From the NCBI GenBank assembly GCA_038870635.1, contig JAVZJR010000007.1, positions 1 through 22,990 on the forward strand: 22,990 nucleotides of DNA, read 5' to 3'. The notes under the pieces are model-generated. The model was not told the DNA's origin. It was given only the letters and a program-made list of their open reading frames with translations, and did no database searches. Below, in pieces: positions 89 through 22,122 of this stretch (within the stretch, counting starts at the first letter, position 1; the number at the start of each line of letters is the position of its first letter). The position numbers and the translations under genes are program-made. Source of the DNA: Candidatus Bilamarchaeaceae archaeon (GTDB taxonomy: Archaea; Micrarchaeota; Micrarchaeia; Anstonellales; Bilamarchaeaceae).

Positions 89-255
89 AAATTTATTTTT
101 TCTACAAATTTTTATAAAGTTATCTTTATTGAATTATTATGGTTATACGCTATAATCTTTAATTTTTAGATTGTCATTTTTACTTTAATTTACTTTAATA
201 TTGAAATAAATAATTTAAATATTTGCTACCAACTAATCAAACGAAAGGTGAATGT

Positions 256-1257
256 ATGAAGGCAACCGCAATAGCTAATTCTAATATAGCGATAATAAAG
301 TATTGGGGAAAGAGAGATGAAAAACTTATATTGCCTACTAATAGTTCTCTTTCTTTTACAATGGATGATAATCTTAATACAAAAACAACGGTGGAGTTCA
401 GCAGGAATCTAAAAAACGATGAGTTATATATAAATGATGAAAAGGCAACAGAAAAAGAGACATCGAGAATAACAGAATTTTTAGATATAGTAAGAGGGAT
501 GGCTAAAATAAATGAAAGGGCTCTAGTTATATCAAAAAATAATTTTCCAAAAGCAGCAGGTATGGCTTCTTCAGCATCTGCTTTTGCTGCTCTTGCTGGA
601 GCGGCGTCTAGGGCAGCTGGTCTTAATCTTTCACTTACTGAAATATCTGTTTTGGCTAGGAGGGGGAGCGGAAGCGCGATTAGGTCTATATATGGCGGCG
701 CGGTTAAATGGGAGATGGGGGAAAAAGCAGATGGTAGTGACTCTATAGCAGTGCAAATAGCGCCAAAAGAACACTGGCCTGAAATAAGAAATGTTATTGG
801 GATTATAACAAAAAAAGAAAAAAAGATAAGTTCTCGCGCTGGAATGAGAGAAACCGTAAAAACCTCTTCGCTTTATGAAGCAAGGTTGTTGCACGTAAAA
901 GAAAGGTTGGAGATGGCTGAAAAAGCGATCCTGCGAAAGGATTTTCATACTCTCGCAGAGATAATAATGCGCGAGAGTAATAACATGCACGCAGTAATGC
1001 TTGATACCTACCCCCCAATAATCTATCTTGATGATGTTGCAAAAGCAGTAATTGAGTCAGTCATAGAATTTAATTCTAAACAAGGAAAAAATGTTCTCGC
1101 GTATACATTTGACGCTGGCCCAAATCCTCACATATATACAACTGAAAAATTCGTAGATGATGCAATAGAGTTATTGCGTTACAATGGAATAAAAGAACAA
1201 ATAGTGTGTAAAGTAGGCGAGGGTTTGAGATTTTCTGACGACCATCTTGACATTTAG
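256..1257 (+). CDS. mvaD: Diphosphomevalonate decarboxylase (GHMP family)
   Basis: Motifs ANSNIAIIKYWGK, NNFPKAAGMASSASAFAAL, LARRGSGSA, ESNNMHA and YTFDAGPNPH. ATG at 256 follows the SD-like AGGTGA (246-251); the ORF track start at 223 is probably too early. Confidence 0.93.
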   Translation: MKATAIANSNIAIIKYWGKRDEKLILPTNSSLSFTMDDNLNTKTTVEFSRNLKNDELYINDEKATEKETSRITEFLDIVRGMAKINERALVISKNNFPKAAGMASSASAFAALAGAASRAAGLNLSLTEISVLARRGSGSAIRSIYGGAVKWEMGEKADGSDSIAVQIAPKEHWPEIRNVIGIITKKEKKISSRAGMRETVKTSSLYEARLLHVKERLEMAEKAILRKDFHTLAEIIMRESNNMHAVMLDTYPPIIYLDDVAKAVIESVIEFNSKQGKNVLAYTFDAGPNPHIYTTEKFVDDAIELLRYNGIKEQIVCKVGEGLRFSDDHLDI

Positions 1258-1266
1258 GTGTTTTTT

Positions 1267-2337
1267 ATGATAAAAGCGTCCGCCCCGGGCAAGATCCTAT
1301 GGTTAGGTGGTTATGCTGTCCTCGAAAGGCCAAATATATCCTTAGTTACTGCTGTAAATGCGCGAGTTCACGCTCACATTCAGAAATTTAAAGAGGACTA
1401 CCTGGAAATCCCCCAGTTTAATATTAATGAAAGCATCACGGCCTTATCAGAAGATAAAAAAAATAGTGCAAAGTTTGTTCTTGCAGCCCTATCATCGGTT
1501 AATTCCTACATAAAAGCCAAAGATATCTCAATAGAACATGTAAAGATAAGCACTGTAAGTGATCCAGCGTTTTCAGTAGAAGGCGGAAAAAGCGGTTTAG
1601 GGTCAAGCGCAGCAGCTACAGTTGCAACAGTTGCGGCTCTTTTATGTTTTTATGGTTTTAAAGACAGAGAGTTAGTTCATAAATTGGCGCAGTACAGTCA
1701 TGCATTAGCGCAAGGGAAGATTGGGTCTGGCTTTGATATCGCCGCGGCTACTTATGGTACCATACAATATACACGTTACAGTCCATCTATAATTAGTATG
1801 GATGAGAAAGATATCACAAAAATAATAGATAAAAACTGGGATTACGAGATAAAACCTATAGAATGGCCATCAGAATTACGAATAATAACGGGCAATTTTA
1901 TCGGTGAGAGCGCATCTACTACTACGATGGTAAAAAAGGTGATGGATTATAAGAAAAATAATCCTGAAGAATATTCAGAAATAATAAGGGAAATTGACAA
2001 CGCAGATAGGAGGGCGATAGATGCGTTACAAAGAAAAAATTACAAAGAATTTGCTTTTTACTTTAACGAAAGTCGCTTACTTACAAAAAAATTAGGAGAA
2101 AAAAGCGGAGCCGAAATAGAACCGCCAAAAGTAACCACACTTATTGAAAAAATTTTAAAAGAAGGGGGGGCATTGGCTGCTAAACTTCCAGGTGCAGGCG
2201 GAGGTGATAGTATTTGTGTTATCTGCACCGACAGTGAAAGTGAAAGAAAAACAAAAGAAATTTTGCAAAAGGAAAATAACATTAGCATCCTTCCTGATTT
2301 AAAAATAGAAAATAAAGGTCTACTATATCGCTCTTAG
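1267..2337 (+). CDS. mvaK2: Phosphomevalonate kinase, ERG8-like (GHMP family)
   Basis: SAPGKILWLGGYAVLE, GKSGLGSSAA, AQGKIGSGFDIAAATYG and PGAGGGDS motifs typical of ERG8-type PMK. Directly follows mvaD, with SD-like AGGTG overlapping the mvaD stop. Confidence 0.88.
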   Translation: MIKASAPGKILWLGGYAVLERPNISLVTAVNARVHAHIQKFKEDYLEIPQFNINESITALSEDKKNSAKFVLAALSSVNSYIKAKDISIEHVKISTVSDPAFSVEGGKSGLGSSAAATVATVAALLCFYGFKDRELVHKLAQYSHALAQGKIGSGFDIAAATYGTIQYTRYSPSIISMDEKDITKIIDKNWDYEIKPIEWPSELRIITGNFIGESASTTTMVKKVMDYKKNNPEEYSEIIREIDNADRRAIDALQRKNYKEFAFYFNESRLLTKKLGEKSGAEIEPPKVTTLIEKILKEGGALAAKLPGAGGGDSICVICTDSESERKTKEILQKENNISILPDLKIENKGLLYRS

Positions 2338-2473: not shown

Positions 2474-3286
2474 ATGGAAATAAAATATGTGTCATTAGAA
2501 GGCGTATTGGCAAAGACCGGTTTCACGAAAAATGAAAAAAATCTTTTACTAAAAACACTTCATTTATATGATGTACTTTATGAAAAAAGAAGTGAAGCAA
2601 TGGGTGTTGGCGGCGTCGCACTTCGTCTTTATATAGATGCTAGGTACAAAGCAAAAATGGGAAATACAGCTAAGATTACCGATGTTGACCTCGTGTTTTT
2701 AGAAATACCACCTTGGATAAAAAAATATTTACAAAAAGACAATTTTGTCCCTCAAGAACGCCTCCTTCTTAATATAAATGGCATTGTTAAGAAAATAGTG
2801 AGAACATACGAGGGTTTAGCCCCAGTTTGGCATCTTCAACCAAATCTTTCGGAACAAATTCCTATTTTTGATGATGTTTGTTTTTTTGAGGGAAAAATAG
2901 GTAGAATACCAATTTTAGCGGATGATTTTGCCTTTTCTTCTGTCGTGACAATACACACAAATTATGAAAACAAAGAGAAGCAAACAGATATAAGAATAGC
3001 TGATAAAGGTTTGCTTCTAGCAACTTTTCTTAATCCAGACGCGATAACAGATGTGCGTGCACGACGTTCTGCTCTTCTTTTAGCCAGTCATCATACTGAA
3101 ATAGAATCCATTGCAAAAAGATACGTCGAGGTAATAAAAAGGACGGATATTGATTTAAATGAACTTAAAAAAACGTTAAATATTTTGATTTCAAATGCTA
3201 AAAATCAACTTAAGAAATATGCACACGAATTTGTTGAGGTCGTATGGGGGGTTTTATCGTCTGACCATCAAAACATTTTTAAATAG
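2474..3286 (+). CDS. Hypothetical protein with a Pol-beta-like nucleotidyltransferase signature (AbiEii/DUF2204-like)
   Basis: GVGGVALRLY followed by ITDVDLVF (hhGGxA...TxDhD). TATA-like TTTAAATA about 25 nt upstream of the ATG. Confidence 0.6.
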   Translation: MEIKYVSLEGVLAKTGFTKNEKNLLLKTLHLYDVLYEKRSEAMGVGGVALRLYIDARYKAKMGNTAKITDVDLVFLEIPPWIKKYLQKDNFVPQERLLLNINGIVKKIVRTYEGLAPVWHLQPNLSEQIPIFDDVCFFEGKIGRIPILADDFAFSSVVTIHTNYENKEKQTDIRIADKGLLLATFLNPDAITDVRARRSALLLASHHTEIESIAKRYVEVIKRTDIDLNELKKTLNILISNAKNQLKKYAHEFVEVVWGVLSSDHQNIFK

Positions 3287-3440: not shown

Positions 3441-3454
3441 GTTCTAGAAATCTA

Positions 3455-6348
3455 GATATTCATACCGTCTAGTGGATGCCTAGGCTTACGCCCACGCGGC
3501 CACGCGGCAAGCTGCGATAATCTCCGGGTAGCCGCATGCAGGCTTTGATCCGGAGGATTGGCGGTGTACTTTCCGGCTAACTGGGAAGTACGAAAACTCC
3601 CCGAAATGAAGCGTCTTAGTAGGGGAAGGAAAAGAAATCAATCGAGATCCGGTTAGTAACACGAGTGAAAGCCGGACAGACCGTCCTGAATACTCTATGG
3701 TAACATAGAGTAGATGTGGTGAGGTTAGTACCATCCATTTTCCTACCAGAAGTCAGCTGGAACGCTGCGCCATAGCGGGTGAAAGCCCCGTATGGAAAAG
3801 AAAATGGAGGGAACTCGAAGAGTAGTGTCCTCTTGATAGGGGGCATGAAGATGGGGGTATCAACCTCCAAGTCTAAATATGGGGCGTAAGACCGATAGCG
3901 CATTTAGTAGCGCGAGCGAAAGGTGAAAAGAACCGGGGGACCGGTGTGAAAAGACCTGAAACTAGACGGTTACAGCAGGACAAGGCACAAAAGGGTAGGA
4001 CTGCAGAAGTGAATGCTGGTAACAGCAGGAACGATGCAGTTTAACCAGTGTCTTGTCTTTCTTCTCGAAGCAAGAGCCAGGGAGTTTATGTGCGTGGCGA
4101 GACGAAAGTCGAAGGGAAACCAAGTGCCCGCAATACCGCAAGGTATGAGGGGCGTTGTGGTAATTCGCGACTAGTCACTCACATAAGACCCGAAGCCGTT
4201 GTGATCTACGCCCGAGCAGGGCGAAGCCAGCTTGACAGCTGGTGGAGGCCCGCAACTAGTGGTGGTATATTCCCCTTAGGTGACTTGGGTGTAGGGGTGA
4301 TAGTCCTGTCGAACACGGCAATAGCGAGTTCCTCCCAAAATGTGTCTCAGCACAGCGTCCTTGGAGTGAGATACAAGGGTAGAGCACTGATCAGACAGAG
4401 CGGCTCCGAAAGGGGTCACTGTCTTTTCAAACTCCGAATCTTGTATCCACGAAGAAGAGGGCAGTTGGGTTCACGGGGTAAGCTTGTGGACCTATACGGG
4501 ATTGACCGTACGTTGGGTTAAGGACCCTAAATGCTGGTTAAGTGCGAACTGCAAAGAAGTCTCTATTCAGAGACAGCCGGGAGGTAGGCTTAGAAGCAGC
4601 CATCCTTTAAACAACGCGTAATAGCGGACCGGCCGAGAATGCAGACTTTGAAGATTACCGGGGCTAAACCAGCTTCCGATACCCAACCTAGGCGAAAGCC
4701 TATAGAGTAGGGAGGCGAACGGATGGCGCAGAAGTAGGTTCGTGAGAACCTATGGAGCCTTCTGTTATGAATATCCTGGTGTTAGTAACAGCAATATCTA
4801 GGTGAGAATCCTAGACACCTTATAGAGCAAGGTTTCCTCAGCAACGTTCGTCAGCTGAGGGTTAGGCGATCCTAAGCCTCATGGTAATTCCTCTGAGGCG
4901 AAATTAGGGAAGCCGGTTAATATTCCGGCCCCACAGAGGTAGGTGCCGCAAGGCATGCCAACTTTCGGACGCCTTTGGATAGGTGAAGCGGCTGCGGCCG
5001 TCTGAGGAGAGTAACTTCGCGGAGTCTCATTATGAGGAGAAGCGAATGAAACTCCAAGGGGAAACTTCATCAAATCCAGGGGCCCATGAAAACGAGGTTG
5101 GAACGATCCTCTGTGCTCGTACCAAGAACCAGTACAGGTGCTCTAGCTGAAAAGGCTAAGGTGTGTCGGGAGAACCCGGGTAAGGGAATTCGGCATATTG
5201 GCCCCGTATCTTCGGTAGAAGGGGTGCCTTCGCATGCGCAATGCGGAGGTCTCAGTAACAAGGGGGGAGCGACTGTTTACCAAAAACACAGGTCACCGCA
5301 AAGTTGAAAAGCCTAGTATGGTGGCCGACGCCTGCTCACTGCCAGTACCTGAAAACGGGGTTCAACCTGGAGAAGGGCTGGTAAAGAGCGGGGGTAACTC
5401 TGACCCTCTTAAGGTAGCGTAATACCTCGCCGCTTAATTGGCGGCTTGCATGAATGGCGTAACGACTCCCCCACTGTCCCTACCTGGGACCTGGTGAACT
5501 CACTATCCGGTGAAGATGCCGGAGACTCCCAGTGGGAAACGAAGACTCCATGGAGCTTTACCGCAGTCTGGTGTTGTGGTACGAGTTATACTACCGAGAG
5601 TAAGTGGGAGCCGTCGAACCGTTGCTTCCGGGTAACGGGGAGGCGAAAGTGTAACACCACTTAGTATGACTTGTATTGCTTACTCGAAAGAGGACAGCGC
5701 CAGGTGGGCGGTTCGGCTGGGGCGGTACGCCCTCGATAAGGAAACAAGGGCGCCCAATGCTCTGCTCATCCCGGTCAGAAATCGGGAGTAGAGGGTGAAA
5801 GACAAATGCAGGGCTGACTGTATCCCTAAAAGCGTGGGATGCAGAGACGAAAGTCGGGCTTAGCGAACATAGATACCTTATTGATGAGGGTTCTATCTGT
5901 CAGACAAGCTACCCTGGAGGTAACAGGCTCGTCGCGGGCGAGAGTACACATCGACCCCGCGGTTTGGTACATCGCTGTCGGCTTGGGACATCCTGGTGGG
6001 GCAGGACCCGCCAAGGGTTGGGTTGTTCATCCATTAAAGTCCCACATGAGCTGGGTTCAGTACGTCGCGAGACAGTACGGTAGTATCTACTGGGAGCGTT
6101 TGCCTCTTGAGAGGAAGGATCTCTGAGTACGAGAGGAACGGAGATCCGGCGCCTCTAGTCTACCGGTTGTGAAATACGCACTGCCGGGCAGCCACGCGCC
6201 AAGTGATAAGACCTGAAAGCATCTAAGGTCGAAGCACTTCTCAAGACGAGGAGGCATGAACCGCGGATAGCAGATCCGTTTGATAGGACCGGAGTGTAAG
6301 CGGTTAGCGAAAGCGAGCCGTTCAGCTTGCGGTTACTAAAGGTTCATT
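3455..6348 (+). rRNA. rrl: 23S ribosomal RNA, archaeal, not linked to 16S or 5S (ends approximate)
   Basis: Conserved blocks GCAAGCTGCGATAA, GGTAGGCTTAGAAGCAGCCATC, CTCTTAAGGTAGCG, TAACAGGCT, GAGCTGGGTTCAG and the sarcin-ricin loop AGTACGAGAGGAAC. About 2.9 kb, GC-rich against an AT-rich background. Confidence 0.98.
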
Positions 6349-6388
6349 CCAAACTCGCGCACATTCTGCTTTTTTCCCTTCCCATTCT
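6349..6388 (+). other. 3' arm of the 23S pre-rRNA processing stem
   Basis: Inverted repeat of 3398-3440, followed by a T-rich tract. Confidence 0.8.
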
Positions 6389-6442
6389 CTAATTTTTTAA
6401 ATATTTATGAATGAGAATATTAGTTGTATGCACTATTTTGAT

Positions 6443-7663
6443 ATGTCTAAACTATATTATTTTTCAAAAAAGCCAGGCATAGGCGGAAAGATAAAAGCTA
6501 CGCCAGAAGATTTCATAGTTGAAGAAATAACAACAGATGGTAGTGTACTAAGCATAGATAAAATTTTTTCAAGAAAAGATGAAGAAGGTTCTTTTACTCA
6601 TTTTATTCTGCAAAAGAGAAGTTGGACTACAGAAGGTGCTTTAAGAAGAATTGGTGATGCGTTAGGAGTAGGAAAGAAAAGATTTTCTTACGCAGGTTCA
6701 AAAGATAAAAATGCATTTACTACACAACTCGTTTCTGCTTACAAAGTTGCTAAAGAAGATTTGCTTTCTCTTAAACTAAAAGACATAAAAATTCTTGGGG
6801 CATGGTATGCAAAAGATAAAGTTCATCTTGGGGAGCTCCTTGGTAATAGGTTTACCATTCGCGTCGTAGATGTTAAAGAAAAAGAACCCTCTAAAAAAAT
6901 CAAAAAAATCGCTAATGAAATAAAAATGCATTTCCCAAATTATTTTGGCCCTCAAAGATTCGGAAGTAGTCGCAAGAATACAGACACTGTAGGGGAATTT
7001 CTTATCCGTGGTAGGCCAGACCTTGCTGTAATGGAATTTTTAACAGGTTCTTGCGAGTTAGAAGAGAGAGAAGAAGCCAAAGTTGCGCGTTTAAATCTTT
7101 CTAAAACAAATGATTTTTCTCTTGCATTAAAGGAATTTCCAAAAAGCTTGAAGTTGGAGAGAAGCATCCTTTATCATCTCTCAAAATATCCTCGGGACTA
7201 CGCAGGTGCTCTTCGTTGTCTTCCACGTCAAACTTTACTTCTTTTTGTGCATGCTTTTCAATCGCGTTTATTCAATATCCTGCTTTCAGAAAGAATAAAA
7301 GAAGGCGAAATTAAAAAGGAAGAGGGAGAATATTATTGCGGAGAAAAGTTAGGTTTTCCAGACATAAATAAAAAAGAAGAAAAAAAGAGAAAGAGTACGT
7401 ACTTGGTGGGCAAGATAATTGGTTATGAGACAAAGATAAACGAGCGAGAGAAGAACTTACTTCTTAGATTTGGAATAAAGCCTCAAGATTTTAAGATAAG
7501 TTTTATGCCTGAGATTTCAACAAAAGGCGGCTACAGACTTCTTTTTGCACCATTGAAAGATTTCTCTTTTAAAGACAATACTTTTATTTTTTCCTTACCG
7601 GCAGGTTCCTATGCTACTGTCGCTTTGCGAGAGTTTTTAGATGTCAATAAAGAGGTTGTTTAA
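6443..7663 (+). CDS. truD: tRNA pseudouridine(13) synthase TruD/Pus7
   Basis: KATPEDFIVEE, catalytic SYAGSKDK, GELLGNRFTI, PNYFGPQRFG and FSLPAGSYATVALRE. The start could also be 6407 or 6428. Confidence 0.95.
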   Translation: MSKLYYFSKKPGIGGKIKATPEDFIVEEITTDGSVLSIDKIFSRKDEEGSFTHFILQKRSWTTEGALRRIGDALGVGKKRFSYAGSKDKNAFTTQLVSAYKVAKEDLLSLKLKDIKILGAWYAKDKVHLGELLGNRFTIRVVDVKEKEPSKKIKKIANEIKMHFPNYFGPQRFGSSRKNTDTVGEFLIRGRPDLAVMEFLTGSCELEEREEAKVARLNLSKTNDFSLALKEFPKSLKLERSILYHLSKYPRDYAGALRCLPRQTLLLFVHAFQSRLFNILLSERIKEGEIKKEEGEYYCGEKLGFPDINKKEEKKRKSTYLVGKIIGYETKINEREKNLLLRFGIKPQDFKISFMPEISTKGGYRLLFAPLKDFSFKDNTFIFSLPAGSYATVALREFLDVNKEVV

Positions 7664-8755
7664 ATGATACTACAAGAAGAAAACATCTCTTTTGAGATTT
7701 CGAAAAAAGTTTTTTATAACCCAAATATGCGTTTTTGTAGGAGTATATTTTCTTTAGGAGTAGGTGCGATTAATCGTGATTTGGTTGTTTGTGATGCATT
7801 CGCTGCGTCTGGCATAAGGGGAATTAGATACGCAAAAGAGAATTCAAATGTCAAGAGAGTTATTTTTGTTGATTTAGAAAAGGAAGCTATCAAATGCATA
7901 AAGAAAAACGTGAAAATTTCTAAAATAAAAAATACAAAAATAATGCAAGGCAACATTTCCCGTCTTGTTTTTGATATTGTCGCAGATTTTGCAGAGGTCG
8001 ATCCTTTTGGAACGCCTGCGCCTTATCTATACGATGTTTTTAGAATGTTCAATCCATTAAAAGAGGCTTATCTTTCAGTTACTGCTACAGATACTGCCGT
8101 GCTTTGTGGTGGCAAGGTAAAAGCAGCAATGAAAAATTATCATTCAAAACCTCTAAACAATGAATTTACTCACGAGAATGGTACACGTATTCTTCTAAAG
8201 AAAATCACCGAAGTAGCAGCAGAGTTTAACTTTGGTTGCATTCCTATCCTATCTTTATCCGATAGACATTACCTAAAAGTTTTACTTTATTTAAAAAGAG
8301 GCGCTGACGCCGCCGACCGCTCGCTAAAGCAACTTGGTTTTGTTATATTTTGTCCTAAATGCGGTTATCGTTCAACTGCTCTTTTCCCAGAAAGAATTTG
8401 TCCTCTTTGCCATTCTTCATTAGATTACGCAGGGCCATTGTGGCTTGGCGCCATAGCTGATAAAAAATTTGTAAAAAAGATGATTAAGCTTAATTCTGAG
8501 AGAGATTATGCTGATAAGAAAGAGATAGAAAAAACACTTGACATAATATATGAGGAAGCAGAAATGCCACCATATTTTTATGATATCCATGCTATTGCGA
8601 AAAGGACTAGAAAATCGTTTATACCTAAAATGGATGATATGCTAAACGCTTTGAGAAGAGAAGGTTACGATACTACAAGAACACATTTTTGTCCTACTGG
8701 AATAAAAACAAAGGCGTCTTATAAAGATGTAATAAGCATTATTAGTAAATTGTAG
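7664..8755 (+). CDS. trm1: tRNA (guanine-26-N2)-dimethyltransferase Trm1
   Basis: VFYNPNM, DAFAASGIRGIRYAKE, DPFGTPAPY, SVTATDTAVLCG, zinc ribbon CPKC...CPLC, AGPLWLG, RTHF and GIKT. Confidence 0.95.
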   Translation: MILQEENISFEISKKVFYNPNMRFCRSIFSLGVGAINRDLVVCDAFAASGIRGIRYAKENSNVKRVIFVDLEKEAIKCIKKNVKISKIKNTKIMQGNISRLVFDIVADFAEVDPFGTPAPYLYDVFRMFNPLKEAYLSVTATDTAVLCGGKVKAAMKNYHSKPLNNEFTHENGTRILLKKITEVAAEFNFGCIPILSLSDRHYLKVLLYLKRGADAADRSLKQLGFVIFCPKCGYRSTALFPERICPLCHSSLDYAGPLWLGAIADKKFVKKMIKLNSERDYADKKEIEKTLDIIYEEAEMPPYFYDIHAIAKRTRKSFIPKMDDMLNALRREGYDTTRTHFCPTGIKTKASYKDVISIISKL

Positions 8756-9506
8756 AAATAAATTCTGGAAAATCATACGCTATTTTTACTTTTGGTTTTG
8801 ATATAACTTGTTTGTAACCTAACATATATCCCTCTCTTTGGCAAACTTCAAATACATGTTCACTACATTCGCATTTTTCGTCTGCTTTTACTACAACTAA
8901 ATCTGAACCGGCTTTTCTTAATGCTCGCATGGCGCTTACAATGTCAATTAATTTTGTTTTGTTGTTTATTGTTAAAACTATTCGTATGGGTATATTCTTG
9001 TTAAATTTTCTTGTTTCTTTTATTAGTTCAACAACTTTTTTTACTGAACTTTTTGAATTTTTATCCATATTAATATCATAAGAAATTACATCAACAACTG
9101 AGTTAAGTATGATACCAACAAATTTTTTATTGAAAGAAGGTTTTAGTACGCTTTCAATAATGACATTAGGATTTGTCTGTCTTATTTGCTTAATGTAATT
9201 AGCTATATAAGAGGCACCGCCATCTTTCATGTCACTTCTATAATCAGAATTAAGCATGAGATAACTTATTCCTAATCTTTTGGCCACTGCCGCTATTCTT
9301 TTTCCATAGTCTATTTGCGGCTTTTCTGGTTTTTTGTTTTTTTTCTTCTTGTCTGAAAGTATATTAAAAGCCATAAAGCCATTAAAAAAATAATCTGGAA
9401 GCTCTTCACTATTAGCCAAGAGTGATAAAACCTTTTGGTTTTCTAATACTTCTTGAGCTGCTTTTAATAGGGTTTCATTATGCGCATGGGATTTTATTTG
9501 GAGCAT
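8742..9506 (-). CDS. Degenerate lipoyl synthase (LipA)-like protein lacking Fe-S ligands (probable pseudo-enzyme)
   Basis: LGISYLMLNSDYRSDMKDGGASYIANYIKQIRQTNPNVIIE aligns by eye to the LipA consensus GLxYVVITSVxRDDLxDGGAxxFAxxIxAIRxxxPxxxIE. The C-terminal LGYKQVISKPKVKIAY aligns to MGFxxVxSGPxVRSSY. No CX4CX5C or CX3CX2C motif. Start 9506 or 9545. Confidence 0.7.
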   Translation of the reverse strand: MLQIKSHAHNETLLKAAQEVLENQKVLSLLANSEELPDYFFNGFMAFNILSDKKKKNKKPEKPQIDYGKRIAAVAKRLGISYLMLNSDYRSDMKDGGASYIANYIKQIRQTNPNVIIESVLKPSFNKKFVGIILNSVVDVISYDINMDKNSKSSVKKVVELIKETRKFNKNIPIRIVLTINNKTKLIDIVSAMRALRKAGSDLVVVKADEKCECSEHVFEVCQREGYMLGYKQVISKPKVKIAYDFPEFISTIY

Positions 9507-9537
9507 ATGATTTATATGAGTAAAAAATATTAAAAAT

Positions 9538-10044
9538 TTATTCATTACCAGATAGTTCTCTTATCCAAGCTCCTATAAAATGGGTTAATACTATAACAAT
9601 AACCGCAATTACGAGATGCTCGGCAATCACGTGTAATGTTTTTTGATGTGTCATTTTTGCCATTCTATAACTAAAAAAACAGAGTAGAAGCAGCCCCCAT
9701 GCACTTGCTATCAGGACTGCGTTTTGCAAACTTATTGTGTCCGATGCAAAAAGAAAAGGAATAGCGAAAGTCAATGCAAATAAAAATTTTGATATAAATG
9801 TAGATGCTGTTGCTTCCCATACCTCTTCTTTAGTGTGCACCCCTTCTGACTCTTCAGACATATGTATCCCAAAAGCGTCAGAGAACGCATCTGCTATGGC
9901 TATTATTAGTATGCCGCCTAAAACTGCGGTTTGCGAATTTGTAGTTGCCTCAAGACCAACAATTAAACCCAAAGTAGTTATAACAGCAGAAGTTAATCCA
10001 AAATTCAATCCAACTTCTCTAGAATGCATCCCCATTTTAAGCAC
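9538..10044 (-). CDS. VIT1/CCC1-family metal transporter-like membrane protein
   Basis: FGLTSAVITTLGLIVG and IADAFSDAFGIHMSEESE; about 5 hydrophobic segments. Confidence 0.8.
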   Translation of the reverse strand: MLKMGMHSREVGLNFGLTSAVITTLGLIVGLEATTNSQTAVLGGILIIAIADAFSDAFGIHMSEESEGVHTKEEVWEATASTFISKFLFALTFAIPFLFASDTISLQNAVLIASAWGLLLLCFFSYRMAKMTHQKTLHVIAEHLVIAVIVIVLTHFIGAWIRELSGNE

Positions 10045-10873
10045 CTATTAGTAATCTAAGCATGTCGCGTAAGCCAGGTGCAAGGCCCATTATTATAAGC
10101 ACTAAACAAATATAATTTTTCTCGTTCTCATCCATTTTTTCGTTTTTTATTGCCCATGCAGCGATAACAGAAATCGCTATTTTGACAAAATAAAACAAAA
10201 AATAGCTATCACCAACTATCCCTATCCATCTTGAAAAAACATGCTGTTCAAAATATGAGAGGGGAGCGAAAATTGGTGCTATTTCTATAGCAATAAAAGT
10301 CGCCGCACCATCAAGTGCATGCGCTCCGACTACAAAACTAAGCGTATTCTCTTTAAACAAAATTCTTGCCAACACCAAAGGTATCGCTGCCATTATTACA
10401 ATAGCGAATACTAAAAGGAAATATTTAGAAAATGGTAGAACCAAAAGAAAATGTGGGAGCCAGAGAATCATTCCAACTTTCCATAAATATTTTATTTTTC
10501 CAAATCTATTCAATAAGAATACGCTCGATAAAAAAAGAAATGCCGTGACTATGTATATGCCAGGCGTGACTGTAAGAAACCCATAATCATATATGTGGCT
10601 ATCTAAAATCAATTTATGGATTGGAGTAATTGAAGCAAAAACGCCAGTATCTATGCTGTCTGTTATCACTCTCATTGTGGAGCCTAAAAGCACAAAAGAA
10701 AGCGCACCAAAAATGAAATTGTTATCGATTTTTATTTTACTTTTTTGAAGTAAACCATAAATGATGTATATAGCCACGATTGCGATTATGGCATATGTAA
10801 TAGTGTTTACGATGTTGTACCCAGTTTTAGATATTATTGGGTCAACAAAATATTCATATATAAATTTTTCCAT
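10037..10873 (-). CDS. DUF63-family archaeal multi-pass membrane protein
   Basis: GYNIVNTITYA, RVITD, VTPGIY, AHALDGAAT, YFEQHV and MGLAPGLRDMLR motifs. Likely start MEKFIYEYF at 10873. Confidence 0.8.
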   Translation of the reverse strand: MEKFIYEYFVDPIISKTGYNIVNTITYAIIAIVAIYIIYGLLQKSKIKIDNNFIFGALSFVLLGSTMRVITDSIDTGVFASITPIHKLILDSHIYDYGFLTVTPGIYIVTAFLFLSSVFLLNRFGKIKYLWKVGMILWLPHFLLVLPFSKYFLLVFAIVIMAAIPLVLARILFKENTLSFVVGAHALDGAATFIAIEIAPIFAPLSYFEQHVFSRWIGIVGDSYFLFYFVKIAISVIAAWAIKNEKMDENEKNYICLVLIIMGLAPGLRDMLRLLIGA

Positions 10874-10885
10874 CGAATCAACTGC

Positions 10886-11188
10886 GTGAATATTAAGCAT
10901 AAAAGATTTATAAAACGAAGTAGTTTTGATTCTGTAAAAAAGCTTCTTGAAGAGGCTCGGTTAGCATTTGATAGTGGAAAGATTGAACGTGCTAATCGTT
11001 ATGTAAGGATGTGTTGGGAAATCGTAAAAAAGAATCGCGTTAGATTGCCAAAAGAATACAAAAACTCTTTTTGTAGAAAATGTCTTTCTTTATGGGTGCC
11101 TGGAAGTACTGCCATTGTTTATTTTGATAAGAAAAATGATTGTTTGCGCATAAGATGTCTTAAATGTGGTTTCTCCAAGCGTTTATAA
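10886..11188 (+). CDS. rnp4: Ribonuclease P protein component 4 (Rpp21/Rpr2)
   Basis: RANRYV, RVRLPKEYKNSFCRKC...PG...CLKCG zinc ribbon. Confidence 0.9.
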   Translation: MNIKHKRFIKRSSFDSVKKLLEEARLAFDSGKIERANRYVRMCWEIVKKNRVRLPKEYKNSFCRKCLSLWVPGSTAIVYFDKKNDCLRIRCLKCGFSKRL

Positions 11189-11716
11189 TCATTCTTCAAA
11201 GTTCTCGTAATTTAAATCGTTAAAAGCACAGGTTGGCGGATCCTGAGCGAATATTTTAGCTATCTCTTCATTCTCCACGAGAGCGTTATTTTTTGGCAAA
11301 AAAAGATAGTTTTTTCCTTGGAGTGAGAAGCCAGCATAATACGAGCTGCTCTTAGTTATGTATACCTTAGCGTTTTCTACTCCAAGGCTTCTTAAAAGAG
11401 CTACAAAAAGCAAGGCTTTGTTAGGGCTATCAGCAGCGCGGATTTCATCTATTTCTTCTGGTTTAAGCCAAAAAGTTAAGGAGAATTCGCATGTTTCTAT
11501 TGTTCTAAAATAACCAATTATCCTATTTATAGCTTCGAGCTGTCCTATCGTGGGCCATTCCGGAATTATTCTTTTTAGAAGATGGTTTAAAAAAGGCTTG
11601 TTAGGCTCTGTCATTTTTCTTATTTCTGTTATTGTTTTTGTTTCTTTTTCATTTATTAACTCTTTGTACCTGTTAAGCATTAGAAGATAAATAGCTGCTT
11701 TTTTTCTATCATCCAT
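11189..11716 (-). CDS. Hypothetical protein, transglutaminase-like fold without the catalytic Cys
   Basis: FWLKPEEIDEIRAADSPNKALLFVALLRSLG resembles the W-x-x-P-x-E...GDCEDxAxLhxSLLRxxG transglutaminase-like core. Confidence 0.55.
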   Translation of the reverse strand: MDDRKKAAIYLLMLNRYKELINEKETKTITEIRKMTEPNKPFLNHLLKRIIPEWPTIGQLEAINRIIGYFRTIETCEFSLTFWLKPEEIDEIRAADSPNKALLFVALLRSLGVENAKVYITKSSSYYAGFSLQGKNYLFLPKNNALVENEEIAKIFAQDPPTCAFNDLNYENFEE

Positions 11717-14991: not shown

Positions 14992-16719
14992 ATGGAGTTC
15001 GACGATTTACTTATTACAACGGGCGTTGATGCTCTAGTAAAGCTCGTAAAACAAAAAGGACGAATAGAGTTAAGCGAGTGTGCAACATCTCTTAACATTC
15101 AACCAGATACTTTAGAAGAATGGGCAAGAATACTGGAAGAGGAAGGAATAATAAAAGTGGAGTACAAACTAACAAAAGTATATCTTGTTTGGGTTCAACC
15201 TACAGAAGAACAAATAAAAGAAGAAAGTGAAACAATCGAAGCCGAACGACTCAAACTTCTAAAAGAATTAGAGAAAACAAAGAGCGAAATTCCATTAGAA
15301 TTAAAAAAAATGGATGATTTACGTGATTCTTTTAAAGAAGTGTACTCTAAATTTTCTGCTGATATAAAAAAATTGGAAGAAAAAGTTTCACCTTTTTTGT
15401 CCCTAAAAGAATCTATTGAAAAAAGGAGAAATGAAAACGAGGACAAGTTTAAAAATCTGCAAAACAATTTAACAGATATTGCCTCCAACTTGGAAACAAT
15501 TTCAAAGGAACTAAGAGAAGTAGAGAGTAGTGTTGAAAAAAGTAAAAGCGAGGAATTGTTTACGAAGATAAAGAAAAAACAAGATGAAATTTACCAAATG
15601 ATGAGTGAGCTAAAGGAACTTCGAAGGTCTATTGATGTTAACAAAGCAGTTAAAGCCGAGCTACCATCTGCGTATGAGTTAAAAAAGAAATTTGATGCAA
15701 TTTCAAAAGATTTTGCAGATTTAAAAAACCGTAATTCTGCTTTGCGCGAGGACCTAATTAGTTTAAAGGAAGGAAAGGAGATTGTGGATAATGTTGGTGG
15801 CGCATTGAAAGATTACGAGAAAACAACTGCTCAGTTGCAGAAGGAATTATCTGAATTAACAAAAGAAGCAGATGCATTATTCGAGCGAGTAAAAACTATA
15901 GATGAAAAAGTGCGCGAGAGCTTCGATACAATAAATAGGTTCTCTGATTCTCTGAATGTGGCCAAAGGAATAGTTTCAAGATTTCCAAATCAGGAAAAGC
16001 TTCATGTTGAACAAGAGAGCATTCTAAAGAAAGAGATTGAAATAGAACAAAAAATTGATGCGCTTAAAAAGATAGTTGAATTGGCCGGCGGTGCTCAGAT
16101 TTCTGCTCAGGAAGCACATGACCTAGCGGAGAAAATAGAAGCTAAAATAAATGAGCTCAAAGAAGAATCTATTGTTCTTTCTCAATCTCTAGAAGAAGAA
16201 AAAAATCGTTATTTTACATTTCAACAAGTAAGAGAAAGAGTACTGCCCGCTCTTCGTTCTTACCAAAACGAGATTATTAAACTCAAAGGAGAGTTAGAAA
16301 AGATTAAAGATTCTTTAGATTTTGAAAGCGAAAATTTTGAAAAACAAATTAATAATATAGAAACAAAAATTGGAAAAGAAGAATTAGCAGAACTTTTCAA
16401 AATTACTAAAGAAATCGAAGATAAGAAAAAATTATTAGTTCAAATAGAGAATAATTTTGAAGAATTAAGTGAAAGAGCAGATAATCTAAACAAACGTCTT
16501 TCTCTTTTAACTAATCAAGCAAAGATTTTAGCAGTGCGCGCTGCGCCACCTCAAGAAGAAGCTAAAAAAGAAGAAAAAAGAGGGGAAGAGACAGTCGATT
16601 ATTTCAAAAGAGAACTTCAGTTAACAAAAGAGGAGGAAAGAGAGTTTGCAAAAAAGCGCGAAGAACTTAAAAAACTTATAGAAAAATTGTGGGAAGAGGA
16701 AAAACCTAAAAAGAAATAG
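14992..16719 (+). CDS. Hypothetical protein: N-terminal winged-HTH-like domain plus ~500-aa coiled coil
   Basis: TGVDALVKLVKQKGRIELSECATSLNIQPDTLEEWARILEEEGIIKVEY follows a wHTH pattern; E/K/L-rich heptads run to the C-terminus; no Walker A motif. Confidence 0.75.
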   Translation: MEFDDLLITTGVDALVKLVKQKGRIELSECATSLNIQPDTLEEWARILEEEGIIKVEYKLTKVYLVWVQPTEEQIKEESETIEAERLKLLKELEKTKSEIPLELKKMDDLRDSFKEVYSKFSADIKKLEEKVSPFLSLKESIEKRRNENEDKFKNLQNNLTDIASNLETISKELREVESSVEKSKSEELFTKIKKKQDEIYQMMSELKELRRSIDVNKAVKAELPSAYELKKKFDAISKDFADLKNRNSALREDLISLKEGKEIVDNVGGALKDYEKTTAQLQKELSELTKEADALFERVKTIDEKVRESFDTINRFSDSLNVAKGIVSRFPNQEKLHVEQESILKKEIEIEQKIDALKKIVELAGGAQISAQEAHDLAEKIEAKINELKEESIVLSQSLEEEKNRYFTFQQVRERVLPALRSYQNEIIKLKGELEKIKDSLDFESENFEKQINNIETKIGKEELAELFKITKEIEDKKKLLVQIENNFEELSERADNLNKRLSLLTNQAKILAVRAAPPQEEAKKEEKRGEETVDYFKRELQLTKEEEREFAKKREELKKLIEKLWEEEKPKKK

Positions 16720-18543: not shown

Positions 18544-19569
18544 CTAATTGTAATTATAATTAAAAAAATTGTCTATTAATTTTTTTAATTCTTTAGAGTC
18601 TTTTTCTTGGTTTTTATTTGTCGGTTGTAGAGTTTCCATTGTCATTTTATAGATAGTTTCTGTTAATTCATTAATTTTTATAATTTTTGCTATGCCCTCT
18701 CTTTTAATTTGTTTTATAGTTGTATCCAAGCCAGAGAAAAAGTTTTTTTCGTTAGAAAACAAAACAAGATGATTATTAAAATTTTCATTTTTTAACTTAA
18801 AAGAAAAAATACGGTTAATAGTATTATATGCTTCATATACAAAGTAAATTTGATTTTTTTGTTTTAAATTTTCTATTGCCATAAGAGTTTTTATTTTTTG
18901 TTTTACATCTTCCCCTTCTTTTATATGTATCATGTTATTCATTAAGTTGCTTATCTCAGCTATAGAAAATAAACCACTTTTTGCGTAGGAAATGAGAATT
19001 AAATTTGCTACTTCTTCAGTTTCATTTAAATTATTTATAATTAGTGGTCTAAAGTAAAAATTTTGGTTATTATTGAGTTTTATTATGTTTTTAATTTGGT
19101 CTACTACTTCGATATTAGGTTTGTTTAGTTTAACAAAGTCAGGTAAGTAGTTTTTGAGTAATCTTTTTTCTTCTTTTATTATTTCCTCTTTAAAAGCTTT
19201 GCATTCTAACATAGTCGTATTTTCTTTAGTTTTGTTGAACACGGCTAATATAGTTTGTGCTTTTACTTTTCCTCCCAAAAGAAAGTCTAAATTTTTTATG
19301 TTGTACTCAAGCATTTGCATTAACGGAAGGTAATCGTCATCACTTTTTACAAGAGGTAACAGAATTCTAAGTGAAGAGGCTATTTTACCATTTTTTATTG
19401 CTTCGTTTCGTTCGAACTCATCAGGAGTAAGCAATTTTGCATTAAATTTTGTTTTTGGAGTTATTAACTTTGCTCTCGTGTTTATCAAAGTTAAAATTTT
19501 AGCTTCTGTTTTATTGTTTATACAATTTAAAGTAAACCCCACGATTATCTTTTTTGGTTGACACTCCAT
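18544..19569 (-). CDS. Hypothetical protein (Asn/Lys/Ile-rich, no recognisable motif)
   Basis: 341-codon ORF in very AT-rich DNA, with a TATA-like TTTAAAAA about 25 nt upstream on the minus strand. Confidence 0.7.
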   Translation of the reverse strand: MECQPKKIIVGFTLNCINNKTEAKILTLINTRAKLITPKTKFNAKLLTPDEFERNEAIKNGKIASSLRILLPLVKSDDDYLPLMQMLEYNIKNLDFLLGGKVKAQTILAVFNKTKENTTMLECKAFKEEIIKEEKRLLKNYLPDFVKLNKPNIEVVDQIKNIIKLNNNQNFYFRPLIINNLNETEEVANLILISYAKSGLFSIAEISNLMNNMIHIKEGEDVKQKIKTLMAIENLKQKNQIYFVYEAYNTINRIFSFKLKNENFNNHLVLFSNEKNFFSGLDTTIKQIKREGIAKIIKINELTETIYKMTMETLQPTNKNQEKDSKELKKLIDNFFNYNYN

Positions 19570-20511: not shown

Positions 20512-21010
20512 ATAGTCTCCTATATATTCGCTTTGCAGCGATCAACTCCAGTTGATCCTGCTGGAGGGTACTGCTATCAGACTTCGATTAAGCCATGCAA
20601 GTCTACGGTTGGACTTCCAACCGTGGCGGACGGCTGAGTAACACGTAGTCAACTTACCCTAAGGACGGGGATAACCTCGGGAAACTGAGGATAACCCCCG
20701 ATAGATGATGGAAACTGGAATGTTCCATCATTTAAAAAGCTGGTGAATTGGAGCCAGACTGCCTTAGGATAGGACTGCGGGGGATTAGGTAGTTGGTGAG
20801 GTAACGGCCCACCAAGCCGATAATCCCTAGGGGCCATGGGAGTGGTGGCCCCCAGAAGGGCACTGAGACAAGGGCCCTAGTCCTACGGGATGCAGCAGGC
20901 GCGAAACCTTTACAATGCGCGAAAGCGTGATAGGGGAAGTCTGAGTGGCGGAAACTTAGTTTCCGTCTTTTGCTGAGTGTAAATAGCTCGGCGAATAAGG
21001 GTGTGGGCAA

Positions 21011-21052
21011 ACACGCCCTTCGAGCATTTGACAGTCGTAGGGAGTGGCCTAT
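21011..21052 (+). other. 42-nt BHB intron in 16S rRNA (helix 18, after ~E. coli 510)
   Basis: Interrupts the conserved GGGCAA|GACTGGTG. Central helix GGGC(21005-08)/GCCU(21047-50), bulges AA^A and AU^G, paired intron arms; excision restores the consensus. Confidence 0.9.
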
Positions 21053-21152
21053 GACTGGTGGCAGCCGCCGCGGTAACACCAGCGCCTCAAGTGGTACCCA
21101 CGAATATTGGGCCTAAAGCGTCCGTAGCCGGTCTAGTCCGTCTTCTGTGAAA

Positions 21153-21191
21153 AGATGTTGCCTCGCTTTATTGCGAGACTTCGTCTCACAA
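21153..21191 (+). other. 39-nt BHB intron in 16S rRNA (helix 21, after ~E. coli 609)
   Basis: Interrupts the conserved GTGAAA|T. Central helix GUGA(21147-50)/UCAC(21186-89), bulges AA^A and AA^U, intron-side helix GAUG/CGUC and inner hairpin CUCGC/GCGAG. Confidence 0.88.
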
Positions 21192-21355
21192 TGTTGGGGC
21201 TTAACCCTAACGCGTGCAGAAGATACCACTAGACTCGGGAGCGGGGGAGGACAGGGGTACACCCGGGGTAGGGGTAAAATCCGTTGATCCTGGGTGGACC
21301 ACCAGTGGCGAAGGCGCCTGTCCAAAACGCGTCCGACGGTGAGGGACGAAAGCTG

Positions 21356-21389
<34 letters not shown>

Positions 21390-21491
21390 CAGCTGTAAAT
21401 TATGTAGACTTCGGTGTTACGCTAGAGTAATCTAGCGTAGTGCTGTAGCGTAGGTGTTAAGTCTACCGCCTGGGGAGTACGATCGCAAGAT

Positions 21492-21527
<36 letters not shown>

Positions 21528-21663
21528 CCGTGGATGCTACGGTTCAATTGGATACAACGCCGGGAACATCACCAAGGGCGACGGCAGTATGAAGGCCAGA
21601 CTAAAGATCTTGCCTGACGAGCCGAGAGGTATTGCATGGCCATCGTCAGCTCGTGGCGTGAAC

Positions 21664-21695
<32 letters not shown>

Positions 21696-21965
21696 ATGCC
21701 CTTAGTTGCTAATCTCTTCTCCGGAAGGGATGCACTCTAGGGGGACTGCCCGCGTTAAGTGGGAGGAAGGAGTGGGCGACGGTAGGTCAGTATGGTCCGA
21801 AACCCTTGGGCTACACGCGGCATACAATGGGCGGAACAGCGGGCTGCGACTCCGAGAGGAGGAGCTAATCCCATAAATCCGCTCTTAGTTCGGATTGAGG
21901 GTTGCAACTCACCCTCATGAAGCTGGAATGGCTAGTAATCGCGGGTCATCATCCCGCGGTGAATG

Positions 21966-21997
<32 letters not shown>

Positions 21998-22122
21998 GTC
22001 ACCCAAATGTGTTTTCGGTGAGGCTTCGGTTATTGCCGAATTCGAACCGATGATACGTGAGGGGGGCTAAGTCGTAACAAGGTATCCGTAGGGGAACCTG
22101 CGGATAGATCACCTCCAAAATT

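Follow-up and report, generated by a model that had tools for sequence, protein, structure and literature searches.

We describe a gene, here given the working name lipX, that descends from the lipoyl synthase gene lipA and whose product, judged from its sequence, is probably functional and non-catalytic, that is, a pseudoenzyme. The gene lies in a stretch of 22,990 nucleotides (the window: contig JAVZJR010000007.1, positions 1 to 22,990, assembly GCA_038870635.1), one contig of the 859-kb genome of a Candidatus Bilamarchaeaceae archaeon that is 89.6% complete with 0% contamination. The window carries archaeal 23S and 16S rRNA genes, and the sequencing runs that contain it are hot-spring metagenomes; no RNA run was among them, which has no bearing on expression. 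The lipX family is a real, selected and apparently undescribed family of LipA-derived pseudoenzymes in which intermediates of decay survive. Genomes, related loci and proteins are labelled G, L and P, G000 being the window genome and P0001 the window protein (254 aa); f1 is the Micrarchaeota family, g1 the window genus, and g7, g19 and g23 are other genera of f1. Residue numbers are counted from the ATG at 9506. The features of the gene are as follows.

8742..9506, minus strand: lipX, LipA-derived gene, 254 aa plus stop.
9530..9535, minus strand: TATA-like box TTTTAA, beginning 29 nt 5' of the ATG, after a purine-rich stretch.
9390..9419, minus strand: former CX4CX5C motif of the auxiliary cluster, reading L30/S33/Y39 and two residues shorter.
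9318..9350, minus strand: loop K53-P63, rich in lysine, where the radical-SAM (S-adenosylmethionine) motif CX3CX2C has been deleted.
9213..9239, minus strand: kept LipA motif R90-x-D92-x-x-D95-x-G97.
8907..8933, minus strand: new basic motif on helix alpha5 (A192, R194, R197, K198, G200).
8817..8852, minus strand: new motif on helix alpha6 (F219, E220, R224, Y227, G230).
8775..8786, minus strand: former RSSY motif, now K241-I-A-Y244, with the substrate Arg and the cluster Ser gone.

The initial annotation of this DNA had identified an intact but catalytically dead lipoyl synthase homologue by eye, and this homology is borne out. The NCBIfam LipA models (TIGR00510, PRK05481 and PRK12928) match the protein at E 3e-15 to 3e-14, with 53-56 bits that fall below the curated cut-offs of 203-310. 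A Pfam scan gave nothing at cut-off and no match to Radical_SAM (PF04055), and the best entry in a sequence search of the PDB was human LIAS (E 1.5e-8). An AlphaFold model, computed from an alignment of 19 rows that included intact LipAs, has a mean local confidence (pLDDT) of 88.6 and a predicted TM-score (pTM) of 0.85, and contains the partial (beta-alpha)6 barrel. The comparison with Foldseek that had been proposed, run on this predicted model, ranks LipA/LIAS first (TM 0.79-0.83 over the top 12 rows); VIA-align returns LipA/LIAS at Z 25.0 (root-mean-square deviation 2.7 over 239 residues) and Z 23.8, the next non-LipA entry reaching only Z 13.8. The ESM Atlas's own model likewise matches lipoyl synthase, with TM 0.82. 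The predicted order of elements, N-terminal helices, (beta-alpha)6, beta7 and a C-terminal helix, is that of LipA/LIAS (TIGR00510, PRK05481; structures 4U0P, 5EXJ and 8TRW) as described in the available part of PMC12246082. By profile and by predicted fold the protein is thus a LipA homologue; by its defining features it is outside LipA and outside the radical-SAM enzymes.

What has gone are the ligands of both iron-sulfur clusters, most SAM contacts and the client-binding residues. L30, S33 and Y39 stand for the three cysteines of CX4CX5C, as had been mapped, and the third of these cysteines is still present in P0002 and G001. The loss of RSSY and the correspondence of the segment RSDMKDGGA to the LipA motif R-x-D-x-x-D-x-G were also read correctly. 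The absence of CX3CX2C holds too, but not the idea that a lysine run took its place: about 9-11 residues including the motif are deleted, and the run is mostly an inherited segment that follows the motif and is already lysine-rich in relatives that have it. In the 12 residues after CX3CX2C, six derived proteins have 3-5 Lys or Arg, against a median of 2 and a maximum of 3 in 80 intact LipAs. Ten contacts to methionine and deoxyadenosine are given for human LIAS in the part of PMC12246082 at hand (S179, D181, L212, F143, Y309, M279, M310, R350, E239 and N237); mapped by eye from alignments, eight of the ten are replaced or deleted in lipX, the backbone contact of S179 remains and the alignment leaves L212 ambiguous. 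The same source, as far as it was available, has LIAS residues 66-110 and 311-314 touching H-protein; in lipX these map to an N-terminus that is replaced and to a loop after GQY that is deleted. Lipoyl synthase features that survive are R-x-D-x-x-D-x-G, E118, F219 and G230. Separately, C212, C214, H217 and C222 (about 8841-8873, minus strand) form a Cys/His cluster in a shortened loop before helix alpha6; it is partly present in P0002 and P0003, is not family-wide, and is a possible disulfide or metal site.

The reading frame itself is sound. As the initial annotation had it, the ORF (open reading frame) has no stops or frameshifts: 8742-9545 on the minus strand is open through 267 codons. Translation probably begins at the second ATG (9506), because the database protein and the three closest orthologues (P0002, P0003 and that of G001) begin there and because the TATA-like box begins 29 nt upstream. 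TT[T/A]TAA begins at -30 to -27 in 10 of 10 lipX loci from two genera; as background, 76 of 750 G000 ORFs, whose starts were called crudely, have it there, and 15 of 750 have it in a control window. In archaea such a sequence at this distance is read as the TATA box of a leaderless transcript, and here it is likely to be lipX's own predicted promoter. A frameshift or assembly artefact is ruled out by the presence of the protein in the collection from 6 contigs, by losses common to the orthologues, and by a strain variant that crosses the region without indels.

The derived clade comprises at least 23 sequences, collected from protein searches, genome searches and related loci, in three genera of f1. 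The gene was placed in nine f1 genomes (six of g1, two of g23 and a partial copy in g7), the remaining members being unplaced proteins or contigs. The range is narrow, three genera of uncultured archaea: a sample of 401 genomes of the phylum held no high-scoring member outside f1, and the top seven matches outside f1, the ones whose motifs were checked, are all intact. Decay is graded, from an altered auxiliary motif, through the radical-SAM motif only, to neither. Within g1, G002, G004, G006 and P0007 keep CX3CX2C and a shortened CX2CX5C, the Arg of RSSY being gone; G005 has CX3CX2C only; P0006, L033 and L034 retain one Cys of the CX3CX2C loop; and P0005, G001, P0002, P0003 and the window protein are without the loop. 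In the g23 lineage CX3CX2C is kept in G028 and P0012, distorted in G152 and P0010, and absent in P0053.

A quick tree of 82 rows, from which 22 near-redundant intact LipAs of g19 were omitted, places the 19 derived rows on a single branch with an SH-like approximate likelihood ratio support (SH-aLRT) of 96. A more careful tree of 34 rows was restricted to barrel columns, both cysteine motifs and RSSY being excluded, and supports the clade at 97/93, g1 at 100/99 and the g23 lineage at 95/91, under a model (LG+G4) that can join long branches and with an outgroup that is not clean. Even so, it keeps apart the long branches without cysteines in the g1 and g23 lineages. This topology requires four changes of CX3CX2C; since the placement of G005 is unresolved, three to four losses would be the safe count on the aligned sequences.

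The orthologue and dN/dS comparison proposed at the outset was run, and lipX by its substitution pattern is under purifying selection similar to that on the neighbouring trm1. For the pair L033/L034, the Nei-Gojobori (NG86) dN/dS is 0.056 for lipX, compared with 0.091 for trm1 and 0.162 for the neighbouring VIT-family gene. A Goldman-Yang (GY) codon model of four members that are without CX3CX2C (G000, G001, L033 and L034) gives omega values of 0.074 for lipX, 0.063 for trm1 and 0.103 for VIT, which are rough because synonymous sites are saturated. A strain variant seen in two runs of one study weakly adds to this: lipX has at least six differences, at least four of them synonymous and at least two non-synonymous, with no indels, and among the differences listed trm1 has at least nine synonymous and no non-synonymous ones and VIT at least three and at least four, respectively. 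Intact orthologues, synteny, purifying selection and the promoter-like box together support the view that lipX is not a decaying pseudogene.

Lipoylation appears to be missing from the genus. A check for a true lipA and for lipoylated complexes had been suggested, and neither was found in G000. In a TIGR00510 search of this incomplete genome lipX was the sole match, and in G028, G152 and G012, also incomplete, nothing but the derived gene rose above noise; a hidden intact lipA is therefore not supported. A general loss of Fe-S use is ruled out, G000 retaining five other PF04055 genes. The census of lipA and its clients covered 99 genomes of f1. No E2, LplA/LipB or GcvH was found in any of the seven g1 genomes (81-92% complete), and the ligase families PF03099 and PF10437 (the ligase C-terminal domain) were each found in none of five genomes. 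Two weak matches to the lipoyl domain PF00364 in g1 fall in ORFs of about 590 aa that we take, on recognition of the sequence, to be subunit A of the A-type ATPase. Outside the derived set, 41 f1 genomes have a LipA that keeps both cysteine motifs (checked in all 41, with an RSSY pattern that was loose for part of them), and E2 and ligase occur in every one; among carriers of the derived gene the figure is one of nine, a comparison that ignores kinship, the carriers being three genera. The single case is G152 (86% complete; loci L105 and L106), which has E2 and a lipoate ligase and in which the only LipA-like gene found is degenerate, suggesting that it lives on lipoate salvage only.

Against this background of loss, new residues have become fixed. 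Across 19 derived rows compared with 80 intact LipAs, R166, A192, R194, A199, E220, R224 and Y227 are fixed in the former relative to the latter; derived and intact frequencies are 0.95 and 0.14 for R194, 1.0 and 0.24 for E220, 0.89 and 0.15 for R224, and 1.0 and 0.38 for Y227. A Lys or Arg stands at position 198 in 1.0 of derived and 0.12 of intact rows, and at position 194 in 1.0 and 0.35. All 23 derived sequences have R197, G200, E220, Y227 and G230; G230, like F219, is also kept from LipA. The patch residues lie on model helices 186-199 and 216-229, away from the mapped H-protein contacts, and helix periodicity would make the patch surface-exposed. G012, in which RSSY is still present, already has most of the signature. 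On these alignments the alpha5/alpha6 patch, and not the lysine run, is the best-conserved new feature. The description of the protein as basic also stands: derived proteins have a net charge of +6 to +26 and an isoelectric point (pI) of 9.3-10.3 in 19 of 19, the intact medians being +5 and about 8.7.

We tentatively propose, with confidence a little short of even, that LipX is a non-catalytic docking protein for a polyanion, most likely RNA, bound through the new basic patch. The docking role would have come first, on the outer helices, along the branch leading to the clade and ahead of any loss of clusters. Lipoylation clients would then have been lost in most carriers, and the cluster and SAM ligands would have eroded branch by branch while the patch stayed fixed. 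With a second, non-catalytic role the chemistry would have become dispensable, and it would therefore have eroded in several branches independently. The space of the auxiliary cluster may be filled by aromatic residues from the short N- and C-terminal helices. The stronger version, in which a radical-SAM enzyme was converted completely to an iron-free RNA- or protein-binding factor, early members perhaps being two-cluster radical enzymes with a non-lipoyl substrate, the clusters being shed independently in several branches and every stage surviving in living relatives, is held with more reserve.

The rival that survives best, though we consider it unlikely, is a non-catalytic adaptor or scaffold in which the alpha5/alpha6 patch is an interface for an acidic protein or for self-association. 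The mixed Arg/Glu/Tyr make-up of the patch and the invariance of single residues (R197, E220, Y227, G200 and G230) are typical of a specific interface, and the native docking of LipA to an acidic protein is driven by charge, according to the part of PMC12246082 consulted. What tells against it is that no candidate partner was found: GcvH and ligase were not found in the seven g1 genomes, nor the ligase C-terminal domain in the five that were scanned for it, and a 175-aa neighbour is an improbable partner, being family-wide. RNA or another polyanion is favoured over a protein partner because basic residues rose at many positions, including K58, K62, K94, K128, K170 and K183 off the patch.

We think it improbable that the emptied barrel houses a new non-radical enzyme or a small-molecule binder, or that early members were radical-SAM enzymes acting on a new substrate. 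R90, D92, D95 and E118 persist, Arg (R175) has taken the place of LipA's invariant beta5 Lys in late branches of both lineages, and G002, G004 and G006 keep CX3CX2C, CX2CX5C and the Ser before the terminal Tyr, yet no lipoyl client was found in them. Most funnel-facing residues (86, 120, 124, 143, 144, 146 and 179) vary in late members, however; the kept R/D/G motif may be structural, and even early members no longer have the Asn by which the SAM ribose is held. Equally hard to sustain is a slowly decaying relic, left after the loss of pyruvate dehydrogenase and the lipoylation genes and kept only by selection against misfolding or by its 14-bp overlap with trm1: the stepwise, repeated erosion, the long branches, an identity below that of the neighbours (G000-G001) and the two or more non-synonymous strain differences fit it, but the frames of full-length members are open despite saturated synonymous sites (omega about 0.07), the gene is present in six of seven g1 genomes with contigs ending at the locus in the seventh, the promoter-like box is kept in two genera, residues that are variable in intact LipA became invariant, and other f1 genera lost lipA outright.

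Several observations weigh against our proposal of a selected protein that docks RNA or another polyanion. About 21% of the 749 G000 ORFs also have pI values of 9.3 or more, basicity is already seen in intact LipAs of Micrarchaeota (median pI 8.75), and the invariant E220 and Y227 would be as much at home in a contact with a protein or in salt bridges within LipX. The RNA genes are linked to lipX by position, in convergent orientation, and in g23 they are no longer its immediate neighbours. In 49 of the 98 other f1 genomes a profile that also detects intact LipA did not find the derived gene, which therefore serves no family-wide need. The only unsaturated pair, L033/L034, has more LipA features than the window lipX; between G000 and G001 lipX has pN 0.34 and pS 0.80, with synonymous sites saturated, and an identity of 45% against 50-70% for ten neighbours, indicating faster divergence on a late branch.

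The neighbourhood was examined for context only.

6407-7663: truD, before trm1.
7664..8755, plus strand: trm1, convergent with lipX, overlapping its 3' end by 14 bp.
9538-10044, minus strand: VIT-family gene, upstream and co-directional.
10037-10900, minus strand: DUF63 gene, upstream and co-directional.

The presence of tRNA-modification genes and a VIT1-like gene beside lipX, to which the initial annotation had drawn attention, is thus correct (trm1, truD, VIT); as a clue to function they offer little, the arrangement being that of one genus. The order DUF63-(VIT)-lipX, convergent with trm1, recurs in g1 (G000, G001, G002, G005, G006, L033 and L034, and across two contigs in G004), with VIT beside lipX only in later-branching members. 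G003 is the g1 genome without a match; one of its contigs breaks off within the VIT gene and a second within trm1, which would put the lipX site in an assembly gap. In g23 the derived gene adjoins (G152) or lies about 5 kb from (G028) a homologue of the 175-aa gene of the window, and in G028 it is about 18 kb from trm1, which suggests that the g1 and g23 loci are the same ancestral region with different direct neighbours. This context lends little support because lipX runs towards trm1 and has a promoter-like box to itself, VIT is limited to later g1 members and the g23 neighbours differ; a functional link to trm1/truD, VIT or DUF63 is unsupported beyond one genus. The DUF63 product is presumably the archaeal lipoprotein factor AliA. 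No literature joining DUF63 and AliA was found, and the available part of PMC12462473 does not mention DUF63. The 175-aa gene (11189-11716, minus strand) has no Pfam or NCBIfam match at cut-off, and ESM Atlas features indicate a transglutaminase-like fold. Its product has Ser at the presumed place of the catalytic Cys of that fold, and could be another inactive homologue of an enzyme; as a specific partner of lipX it is ruled out by its presence in 80 of 99 f1 genomes.

Further LipA homologues with a missing motif, P0017, P0025, P0008 and P0031, fall outside the derived clade in the tree; P0017 keeps CX4CX5C without the CX3CX2C loop, and a second member of its cluster exists. The intact LipAs of L010:1249-2457 (G057) and P0013 have a C-terminal extension of about 100 aa, which by eye resembles the small gene before the G152 ligase, presumably LplB-like. 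Elsewhere in the window, the 23S (3448-6356) and 16S (20545-22117) rRNA genes are unlinked, both on the plus strand with the 23S first and 14 kb apart, and ORFs listed within them are spurious. At 223-2337 (plus strand) a diphosphomevalonate decarboxylase gene adjoins a GHMP kinase gene whose product we take to resemble phosphomevalonate kinase, a pair that suggests the classical mevalonate route. A 575-aa coiled-coil protein (14992-16719, plus strand), syntenic in G001, G005 and L033, gives weak SMC-like matches and, at its N-terminus, matches the Sul12a chromatin-protein model (E 2.3e-5). Long ORFs at 2474-3286 (plus strand) and 18544-19569 (minus strand), the latter in a low-GC stretch (25-27%), match no Pfam or NCBIfam family at cut-off.

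Set beside known systems, LipX differs from LipA/LIAS in being without CX4CX5C, CX3CX2C, RSSY, most SAM contacts and both client-contact regions, in its sub-cut-off bits, in genomes where lipoyl clients were not found, and in its new invariant outer-helix patch. The heme chaperone HemW/RSAD1 is a radical-SAM homologue reused for binding and delivery which retains three cysteines, SAM and a [4Fe-4S] cluster needed for heme transfer (PMC10114771, available part); LipX has no such ligands, and its nearest folds are LipA. The archaeal lipoyl synthases LipS1/LipS2 also depart from canonical LipA, with little identity to it, but are active two-cluster enzymes (PMC10332631 and PMC12246082, both in part), whereas lipX descends from LipA and has no cluster ligands; they are reported absent from Micrarchaeota in the part of PMC10332631 consulted. 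Pseudoenzymes such as the pseudopeptidases lose catalytic residues and keep the fold in a binding or scaffold role (PMC11266112, in part). LipX shares with them lost catalytic residues, an intact frame and purifying selection. Unlike regulatory pseudoenzymes, it has no active LipA paralogue that we found in the same genomes, and intermediates of its decay survive. A search of the literature for this family or its precedents, most subscription papers being outside reach, found no report of a derived LipA family, and no cluster-less LipA is described in the accessible portions of PMC10332631, PMC13692748, PMC10114771 and PMC12462473; these genes may appear under the name LipA in the genome tables in the supplements of PMC10332631.

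A LipA annotation in a DPANN genome can be wrong: one degenerate member is named 'lipoate synthase' in its source. A cluster is what defines radical-SAM proteins, and even the reused member HemW still needs one (PMC10114771, in part). With its natural intermediates, the lipX series is a test set for the origin of pseudoenzymes, in which binding comes first and chemistry is lost later, for how the barrel folds without clusters, and for what LipA does besides lipoylation. If the stronger version of our proposal is true, the radical-SAM fold would include in LipX a functional member without a cofactor, and a latent second binding role would lie on the alpha5/alpha6 face of LipA.

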